Source of the DNA: Myxococcales bacterium
GTDB lineage: Bacteria > Myxococcota_A > Polyangia > Polyangiales > Polyangiaceae
Assembly (NCBI GenBank): GCA_003139415.1
Contig: PLIR01000192.1
Span: 3,787 to 49,529 of the forward strand
Direction of reading: 5' to 3'
Length of the DNA: 45,743 nt
How positions within the stretch are numbered: the first letter of the stretch is position 1; each line of letters begins with the position of its first letter. The notes under the pieces are model-generated. The model was not told the origin of the DNA, ran no database searches, and saw only the letters and a list, made by a program, of their open reading frames with translations. The position numbers and the translations under genes were made by a program. Shown here one piece after another: positions 28,600 to 28,830 of the stretch.

Positions 28600-28830
28600 A
28601 TGGAAACCCTTCGTCGCATCTCGGCAGTGCTCGGTCCTACTTCCATCTTCGTCGCGCTCGCCTGTGGCGTCTCTTGCGGTGCGGCCCAAACGCAGTCCGC
28701 ATCGAACAGCTCACCCGCGACGAGCGACGACCGCGACGAGTGCATTCACCACGGCCTGTCCTGCTCGCGCGACAACGACTGCTGTACCCTGTGGTGCGCG
28801 AACGGCGTGTGCACGCGCAAGTCGCCGTAG
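28600..28830 (+). CDS. Small secreted/lipoprotein-like peptide with C-terminal six-Cys knottin-like module (76 aa)
   Basis: The signal-like N-terminus is METLRRISAVLGPTSIFVALAC. The C-terminus is CIHHGLSCSRDNDCCTLWCANGVC (C-x6-C-x5-CC-x3-C-x4-C). GC3 is high. The gene starts 31 nt after the kinase stop. A GTG at 28582 is an alternative start. Confidence 0.6.
   Translation: METLRRISAVLGPTSIFVALACGVSCGAAQTQSASNSSPATSDDRDECIHHGLSCSRDNDCCTLWCANGVCTRKSP

Follow-up and report, generated by a model that had tools for sequence, protein, structure and literature searches.

A conserved small-lipoprotein gene with a predicted knottin-like module in Polyangiaceae-like Myxococcota

Is a short open reading frame (ORF) with a toxin-like cysteine pattern, found in the GC-rich DNA of a Myxococcales bacterium, a real gene, and what could its product do? 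The ORF occupies positions 28600–28830 of the forward strand in a 45,743-nt stretch of contig PLIR01000192.1 (assembly GCA_003139415.1), called the window below. An initial annotation, made from the letters of the sequence, had described its product as a 76-aa secreted peptide ending in a six-Cys C-C-CC-C-C module resembling an inhibitor cystine knot (ICK). Our analysis indicates that the ORF is a genuine small-lipoprotein gene, that the product has a predicted ICK-like domain, and that its likeliest role is that of a tethered binder or inhibitor in the cell envelope. As a whole, we consider this explanation probable.

Identification of the Gene

The product of 28600–28830 (+) is METLRRISAVLGPTSIFVALACGVSCGAAQTQSASNSSPATSDDRDECIHHGLSCSRDNDCCTLWCANGVCTRKSP, 76 aa long, and both ends of the reading frame lie where they had been placed.

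28600–28830, + strand: gene of the 76-aa lipoprotein precursor, ATG at 28600, TAG at 28828–28830; recognised by G+C content at third codon positions (GC3), homologues and 13 Joint Genome Institute (JGI) contigs
28741–28812, + strand: six-Cys knottin-like module CIHHGLSCSRDNDCCTLWCANGVC with spacing 6/5/0/3/4, as annotated

A six-frame scan of the window with a loose pattern returned three C-C-CC-C-C modules, at 28741–28812, 17219–17308 and 17330–17416; the mean in 200 mononucleotide shuffles of the window was 0.02 modules.

Long chance ORFs are common in the window because its G+C content is ~69%. The GC3 of the peptide frame was 0.805, compared with 0.83–0.90 in the neighbouring genes and 0.53–0.68 in the overlapping frames of both strands. 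JGI gene calls include an identical 76-aa protein on 13 metagenome contigs, where the order of genes is unchanged, and two homologues of 79 aa (P0002 and P0003), sharing 70–73% identity with the peptide, were found on other contigs. In codon-level comparisons of the window with each of these homologues, the Cys module contained six synonymous and two non-synonymous differences (dS 0.42, dN 0.03), that is, a ratio of non-synonymous to synonymous change (dN/dS) of ~0.07. Over the N-terminal 50 alignment columns, covering the signal peptide and the linker, the ratio was ~0.3 and the linker contained an indel. A low ratio in the module combined with a laxer N-terminus is what one expects of exported proteins whose mature domain is under constraint. 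These codon comparisons place the conserved ORF under purifying selection; the annotation had made its claim depend on conservation in relatives, and the homologues provide it.

The first alternative weighed was that the ORF is non-functional, arising by chance in intergenic DNA of high GC content, and that its Cys pattern is an accident. The gene calls of identical DNA in ENA and Logan omit the ORF and leave a gap of 288 nt (window 28570–28857, corresponding to 2713–3000 of loci L058, L059, L061 and L063). The peptide has been recorded from JGI only, with no NCBI copy, whereas its neighbours are also recorded from NCBI, and no good Shine–Dalgarno sequence was seen before the ATG. These points speak against a gene. 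On the other side stand a GC3 signal confined to this frame, the low dN/dS of the module, a pattern expected 0.02 times per window and ~90 relatives with the same four-part architecture, invariant Cys spacing and terminal Pro (described below). The family conservation effectively refutes the chance ORF, which we regard as scarcely credible. Because the ENA and Logan calls miss the ORF and JGI alone calls it, the family is probably under-represented in protein databases.

About 25 nt before the ATG are alike in three close homologues (window 28575–28599, L011 558–582 and L012 290–314) and read gcggcg...atgcatc...gtcATGGAAACC. Since the stretch is alike although the upstream genes of the three differ, it suggests a short regulatory or 5′-untranslated-region element travelling with the gene.

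Distribution of the Family

Relatives were sought by exhaustive profile searches, word-index profile searches and DNA-pattern scans of GTDB genomes and metagenomes, which together recovered ~90 stand-alone proteins of 50–149 aa, most of them of 60–100 aa. The exhaustive search, run with a profile of three proteins against 1.84 billion representatives, gave 28 matches at E ≤ 1e-3. All but one (27/28) were stand-alone proteins of 50–90 aa aligned essentially end to end; the remaining one, P0018 (422 aa), was a spurious repeat protein and was dropped. The 33 matches of the word-index search were all named 'hypothetical' and lacked any Pfam domain, and one was labelled Polyangiaceae bacterium.

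A degenerate DNA pattern of the module matched 38 times among the GTDB species representatives and revealed 14 stand-alone members, all from metagenome-assembled genomes (MAGs) named Polyangiaceae, Myxococcales, 'delta proteobacterium' or, in one case, 'proteobacterium'. Twelve matches in unrelated taxa were out-of-frame or low-complexity chance matches and were discarded. There were one or two family copies per genome, with two in four GTDB genomes. When the pattern was extended by the Pro-stop tail and applied to metagenomes, 16 of the 17 matches carried the family lipoprotein leader, and the other (L078) had no signal peptide in its readable sequence. Patterns derived from the three close homologues were too specific and gave 44 chance matches and no confirmed ones in GTDB genomes. 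The family comes from soil myxobacteria and is restricted to Polyangiaceae-like Myxococcota. It has no Pfam or NCBIfam model, and NCBIfam gave no match to the peptide at E ≤ 1, the Myxococcus cysteine-rich repeat and other Cys-rich repeats included.

Architecture of the Precursor

The anatomy was read from two profile-derived alignments (A2 and A3) and from 73 distinct modules. Some of these modules had been found with a Pro-requiring pattern, so part of the conservation among the 73 was forced by the search; the statements on anatomy also hold in A2 and A3. The family architecture consists of a lipoprotein signal peptide, a linker, the 24-residue six-Cys module and a 5-residue tail ending in Pro, with a mature part of 45–58 residues. 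In the window, the module is flanked by the following parts.

28600–28677, + strand: signal peptide and lipobox region with the n-region METLRR, a hydrophobic core and the candidate lipidated residues ALA-C22 and GVS-C26
28678–28740, + strand: Ser/Thr/Pro/Asp-rich linker GAAQTQSASNSSPATSDDRDE, of varying length and sequence among homologues
28813–28827, + strand: C-terminal tail TRKSP, with the terminal Pro near-invariant in the family

The signal/lipobox-like N-terminus noticed at the outset is of the lipoprotein type by sequence rule. METLRR followed by ISAVLGPTSIFVALA-C22 (ALA-C22, 28663–28665) passes a PS51257-type rule, and C26 (GVS-C26, 28675–28677) falls in the alignment column of the lipobox Cys in other members, a residue at least 90% conserved in A2. 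The strict form of the rule is passed by 36/51 members, most of the others having L-P-A-C/xAC or CC variants. The residue at position +2 is Gly in the window copy, after Cys22 as well as after Cys26, and Ala or Gly in most relatives. Conservation of the lipobox throughout the family makes a product tethered to the membrane by a lipid anchor most likely, rather than a freely secreted one. Of the annotated 'secreted' peptide the export signal thus stands, but free secretion is unlikely.

Family linkers comprise 16–29 residues and are rich in Ser, Thr and Pro. Most members have in this region (A2 columns ~45–55) the motif G-[VT]-T-[NT]-x-[QT], as in 'PGVTNAQ' and 'GRTTTTSG', which is weak in the window copy (AAQTQSAS, 28678–28740) and may act in processing, sorting or glycosylation.

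The spacing 6/5/0/3/4 was present in 50/50 modules taken from 51 family proteins with a fixed-spacing pattern. Near-invariant residues of the module are the Asp that precedes CC, the [ST] that follows it, the Trp preceding Cys5 and the [VA]-N-G of the last loop. Its variable parts are loop 1 and positions 1 and 2 of loop 2, and its net character is neutral to acidic in 60/73 distinct sequences. The tail follows the consensus x-[RT]-[RK]-[QES]-P, with the terminal Pro invariant in A2 and at least 90% conserved in A3; in the 73-module set, with its partly Pro-requiring origin, Pro was last in 66 and the tail had five residues in 70. The window copy has His-His beside Cys1, where the family consensus is L-x-R-G.

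A small Cys-rich peptide with a leader could also be the precursor of a ribosomally synthesised and post-translationally modified peptide (RiPP), or a metallothionein-like peptide, in which the Cys residues would be modified or coordinate metal and form no disulfides. The His-His pair would suit metal coordination, and a RiPP class using the lipoprotein pathway has recently been described (PMC13056109). Nevertheless, no recurrent genes for modifying enzymes, proteases or exporters were found in ~25 contexts, the Sec/lipoprotein signal sends the product to an oxidising compartment, and the fixed spacing together with the conserved Trp and Asp fits a folded disulfide core. We hold this alternative to be very improbable; metal binding by His-His was rejected, as the pair is not conserved.

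Predicted Fold of the Module

Knottins are recognised as domains of ~25–40 residues with six Cys in the order C-C-CC-C-C, built around a small antiparallel β-sheet with a Cys V–VI hairpin. The first feature is present at 28741–28812 and the second was predicted by AlphaFold2 (AF2). Modelling of the full-length precursor with three sequences was uninformative, with a predicted local distance difference test (pLDDT) score of 48. The module modelled from a 50-sequence alignment reached a mean pLDDT of 85.1, and its two central 10-residue blocks averaged 91–92. The modelled hairpin spans residues 23–30, with DSSP strands 23–25 and 28–30 flanking a V-N-G-x turn.

Foldseek comparison of the model with the PDB returned mostly small disulfide-rich peptides, and the top matches were all knottins, namely EETI-II, Pn3a, Dkk4, hairpinless Hv1a and several spider toxins. 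They superposed with a root-mean-square deviation (rmsd) of 0.9–1.1 Å over 24–29 alignment columns and template modelling (TM) scores of 0.57–0.68; EETI-II ranked first (rmsd 0.9 Å over 25 columns), and Pn3a had a TM score of 0.68. The mini-granulin conotoxin TxVIIB appeared at rank 40 (TM 0.33). The mini-granulin is a short-loop variant (PMC11035057), and because its loop lengths are 6 and 5 the module fits the ICK type rather than the mini-granulin. Among PDB sequences the family profile likewise found mainly ICK toxins, with Hv1a as the best match (E = 6.6e-4) and maurocalcin at 1.1e-3, and the top matches were chains of this kind throughout. In keeping with ICK pairing, the member P0029 has Thr and Ser at the places of Cys1 and Cys4 and keeps its other Cys; ICK connectivity joins these two residues, though a random pair would fit it one time in five.

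The module can thus be described as a predicted ICK-like mini-domain with the disulfides C1–C4, C2–C5 and C3–C6, of which the last threads the ring in knottins. The knottin-like core that had been proposed agrees with a pLDDT 85 model whose top structural matches are knottins alone. The annotation's restraint, which placed the resemblance to conotoxins in the Cys pattern and claimed no homology, was also justified. The best Pfam match to the peptide, Conotoxin_I2 (PF17557), scored 20.6 bits against a gathering cut-off of 27, and Conotoxin (PF02950), Omega-toxin (PF06357), Toxin_23 and others scored lower, all below their cut-offs.

Proposed Role

If the precursor is exported as its signal predicts, Lgt would lipidate it, signal peptidase II (LspA) would cut it, and oxidation would follow in the periplasm. 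Sorting would probably be to the outer membrane, judging by the +2 residue, which is Gly in the window copy and Ala or Gly in the majority of relatives. The ~29-residue knot on its flexible tether would then form a protease-stable binding module. Its specificity would be set by the variable parts, loop 1 and the two leading positions of loop 2, while the face formed by the conserved residues D-CC-[ST]-x-W-C-[VA]-N-G and the R-[RK]-x-P tail would act as a scaffold or a common contact. From the predicted knottin lipoprotein we infer a binder or inhibitor, and its most likely role would be to bind or inhibit an envelope or cell-surface protein, for example a protease.

Apart from the gene calls and the missing Shine–Dalgarno sequence mentioned above, several points weigh against this interpretation. 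The family is known from sequence alone, its disulfides and knotted topology being predicted, and AlphaFold can mis-assign connectivity in framework VI/VII peptides (PMC11035057). The Foldseek E-values were at least 0.36 and not significant, as expected for a 34-residue query. The paired Cys loss of P0029 comes from one metagenomic sequence. The window clade has two Cys before the linker, C22 and C26, which makes the lipidation site ambiguous and may leave one of them as a seventh Cys. Finally, no neighbour was conserved across ~25 independent contexts.

The annotation's leading suggestion was a toxin or channel blocker; in this reading the peptide would be of ICK type, freely released via signal peptidase I or by linker cleavage, and directed at prey or grazers (amoebae, nematodes). 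Its Cys framework matches that of animal ICK toxins, its best sequence and structure matches are the channel toxins Hv1a, maurocalcin, imperatoxin and Pn3a, and its loop 1 varies as in toxin families. Myxococcota are predators, and the motif G-[VT]-T-[NT]-x-[QT] in the linker may serve for processing. However, the lipobox Cys found throughout the family predicts membrane anchoring, and the toxin similarity stays below the Pfam cut-offs and comes largely from the Cys framework. Most toxins and antimicrobial peptides are cationic, whereas 60/73 modules are neutral to acidic; one or two copies per genome do not make an expanded arsenal, and no linked immunity or export genes were present in the neighbourhoods compared. 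A secreted toxin is therefore unlikely, and the tethered envelope binder or inhibitor is preferred.

Relation to Known Knottins

The animal and plant knottins omega-hexatoxin-Hv1a, the calcins imperatoxin A and maurocalcin, the omega-conotoxins of framework VI/VII and EETI-II share with the family the six-Cys C-C-CC-C-C order with loops of 6 and 5, the acidic D-x-D-CC motif and the C-terminal β-hairpin, which is predicted here. They differ in that the family is bacterial, has a lipoprotein signal instead of a secretory prepro-peptide, is neutral to acidic and ends in a conserved 5-residue tail with Pro. As the scores were below the Pfam gathering cut-offs, no homology is claimed and convergence is possible. 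The squash inhibitors (C-6-C-5-C-3-C-1-C-5-C) depart from the family spacing after Cys3 and gave an hhalign probability of 8.9%. They have a conserved P1 Arg/Lys-Ile in loop 1, whereas loop 1 of the family varies and has Arg as its third residue in 35/73 modules.

Stand-alone knottin-like peptides of bacteria had been called poorly described. This holds in part: the class is not wholly undescribed, since the KNOTTIN database lists predicted bacterial knottins with no experimental structure (PMC5753296). Those entries and the present family are alike in being recognised computationally and in having no experimental structure; the database paper gives no sequences. Our literature search found no paper linking knottins with myxobacteria and, on bacterial knottins, the KNOTTIN database remark alone. 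The fold class is already known; new are the lipobox-bearing single-module family, its relation to unnamed arrays and a gene missed by some calling pipelines.

Knottins are prized as drug and imaging scaffolds and regarded as mainly eukaryotic. A 29–34-residue module with invariant Cys spacing is compact, easy to synthesise and equipped with a natural lipid anchor, and the ~73 distinct natural variants show which of its positions tolerate change. If the fold and a target were confirmed, the cystine knot would extend to bacterial envelope biology, with a scaffold already folding in the bacterial periplasm.

Re-use of the Module in Larger Lipoproteins

The initial annotation had seen the same framework twice at the C-terminus of an 814-aa lipoprotein of the window and had taken it for a reusable bacterial module. 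Both copies were recovered, with looser spacing, together with tandem arrays in other genomes.

14999–17443, + strand: 814-aa lipoprotein with two modules, the lipobox AAAC followed by GSS, a CMGCH motif and a PD40 repeat
17219–17308, + strand: module 1 of this protein CIATPVAGQSGGACTQGFQCCSGFCTNGTC, spacing 12/5/0/3/4
17330–17416, + strand: module 2 of this protein, more divergent, CQSVGGTCTTATDCCNGGTAVSCSAGGVC, spacing 6/5/0/7/5
GTDB Myxococcota contigs: tandem-array lipoproteins L039 (7 modules), L027 (11 modules), L023, L034, L037, L048, L032 and L043

Aligned by hhalign with profile A3, module 1 scored 29.5 (probability 93.5%); shuffles with fixed Cys scored 13.3 ± 3.3 and 0/100 reached its value. 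Module 2 scored 18.6 (probability 39.3%) against 12.3 ± 2.8 for its shuffles, of which 3/100 reached it. Hv1a and imperatoxin A, compared without shuffles, scored 22 (probability 76–79%), so by these scores (29.5 vs 22) module 1 is closer to the family than the animal toxins are. Module 1 therefore bears out the annotation, whereas for module 2 a relationship to the family is plausible and ambiguous. No match was returned, not even the protein itself, when the 78 C-terminal residues of the 814-aa protein served as a word-index query. PD40 was the sole Pfam family in the 814-aa protein, and there was no NCBIfam match at E ≤ 1; CMGCH is a CxxCH haem-c-type motif and the repeat is PD40/TolB-like.

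The idea of a reusable module gained further from the GTDB pattern scan, in which lipoproteins of Myxococcota MAGs contained 3–11 tandem modules with spacing 6/5/0/3/4 or 6/5/0/3/9-10. In the array proteins Pfam recognised animal-toxin families alone, one array reaching 36 bits with Conotoxin_I2 over the whole protein in three matched stretches, and NCBIfam had no match at E ≤ 1. As nothing but animal-toxin Pfam families match, the array repeat appears to be an unnamed Myxococcota domain, and the module an unnamed unit that Myxococcota surface proteins commonly contain. Some of the arrays come after Cys/Asp-rich repeats of another type.

Arrays and stand-alone proteins have in common the spacing class, a CC-[ST]-G-[WFL]-C motif and the taxon. 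In contrast to the stand-alone family, many array units have no Trp-Cys-[VA]-Asn-Gly, the arrays have no Pro-terminal tail, and they belong to proteins whose length ranges from several hundred residues to more than 1000. The module used in Myxococcota tandem arrays, the 814-aa protein included, seems to have given rise to the stand-alone family as a single-copy derivative.

Gene Neighbourhood and a Possible Kinase Partner

The gene order described for the locus, between a hybrid histidine kinase and a hemerythrin-like gene, was reproduced.

25654–28569, + strand: hybrid sensor kinase CHASE3-GAF-GAF-HisKA-HATPase_c-REC, stop 31 nt before the peptide ATG, start taken from the 971-aa JGI call
28858–29451, + strand: Hemerythrin-domain gene, 27 nt after the peptide stop

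The kinase and peptide genes are probably in the same operon in the window. The promoter and terminator scan of 27500–30000 gave no match, including between the kinase, peptide and hemerythrin genes, and the Rfam scan of the same region had no match either.

In the two closest homologues, the upstream gene was judged by eye to be P450-like in one and PD-(D/E)XK-nuclease-like in the other, and the downstream gene was convergent. As these neighbours differ, the peptide gene moves independently of the kinase and hemerythrin genes; the annotated linkage is present in the window but is not kept in the nearest homologues. No conserved partner gene emerged from an all-against-all BLAST of the neighbours in 33 loci, from Pfam analysis of 15 neighbour proteins or from the Pfam listings of the contigs. 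Synteny was limited to subfamilies: P0041 and P0014 are followed by a ~150-aa lipoprotein, L045/L056/L071 by an Lcl_C protein and L020/L067/L072 by a TonB-C protein. In the 'TTTTSG' subfamily, a conserved ~150-aa lipoprotein with no Pfam family comes after the peptide gene (L013 8253–8723; L018 4571–5017).

In three distant subfamilies, represented by the window, L020/L067 and L016, the peptide gene is preceded on its own strand by a sensor kinase that has a four-helix-bundle sensor in the periplasm. In L020 (1166–3864) and L067 (1–381) the upstream genes encode a CHASE3-PAS-HK protein plus a REC-GGDEF protein, and in L016 (3409–4794) the kinase has a sub-threshold match to 4HB_MCP_1 (21.4 bits vs a cut-off of 27). 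The adjacency is suggestive and may be meaningful, or possibly chance.

The lipoproteins RcsF, NlpE and QseG feed envelope signals into two-component systems, and RcsF, a small outer-membrane protein with a disordered linker and a disulfide-bonded C-terminal domain, signals to a phosphorelay. By analogy, the peptide may be an auxiliary lipoprotein whose partner is the adjacent kinase, either passing signals to its periplasmic four-helix-bundle (CHASE3/4HB) domain or being sensed by that domain. Its predicted layout of lipobox, flexible linker and small disulfide-rich C-terminal domain resembles that of RcsF-type lipoproteins, and its gene follows a sensor kinase in the window, where the scan found no promoter or terminator between the two, and in two further lineages. 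There is no sequence or fold relationship, though, RcsF having a larger α/β domain with two disulfides, and the kinase linkage is not conserved in the family. The nearest homologues (70–73% identity) have the P450-like and nuclease-like genes upstream, and ~20 other contexts are unrelated (GNAT, Bmp, PMT_2, GMC oxidoreductase, AcrB, fumarase, GH8, Lon, DUF302). Two-component genes are, moreover, very abundant in Myxococcota, and the association was spotted post hoc. A dedicated kinase partner is thus improbable, and the tethered binder or inhibitor is retained as the preferred explanation.

More speculatively, Myxococcota might own a true cystine-knot lineage, either very ancient or of independent origin, used both in tandem arrays on surface proteins and as lipid-anchored single knots. 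The single knots would then serve as envelope ligands or co-sensors of periplasmic CHASE3/4HB sensor kinases, or as contact-delivered effectors handed from cell to cell along with other outer-membrane lipoproteins. We regard this as doubtful; if true, bacteria would gain their first functional knottin, which would also be the first knottin with a lipid anchor.

Other Observations in the Surrounding Region

The Hemerythrin-domain protein (28858–29451) had a weak match to the NCBIfam model of the ribosome-binding persister protein PA2171, at 35.8 bits vs a cut-off of 190. Further downstream, an ORF at 29570–30556 encodes 328 aa with a coding-like GC3 of 0.83 and a Pro/Ala/Thr-rich linker, APAPTPAPTPAPGPSP; it is conserved on the same contigs and has no Pfam or NCBIfam family. 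A population polymorphism was seen ~5 kb downstream of the peptide gene, where L001 (10960–12231) has an IS3-type transposase pair (HTH_Tnp_1 and rve), and L002 (10871–12231) has in the same place a Ser/Thr kinase and a gene of 260 aa. A 260-aa ORF occupies the corresponding position in the window.

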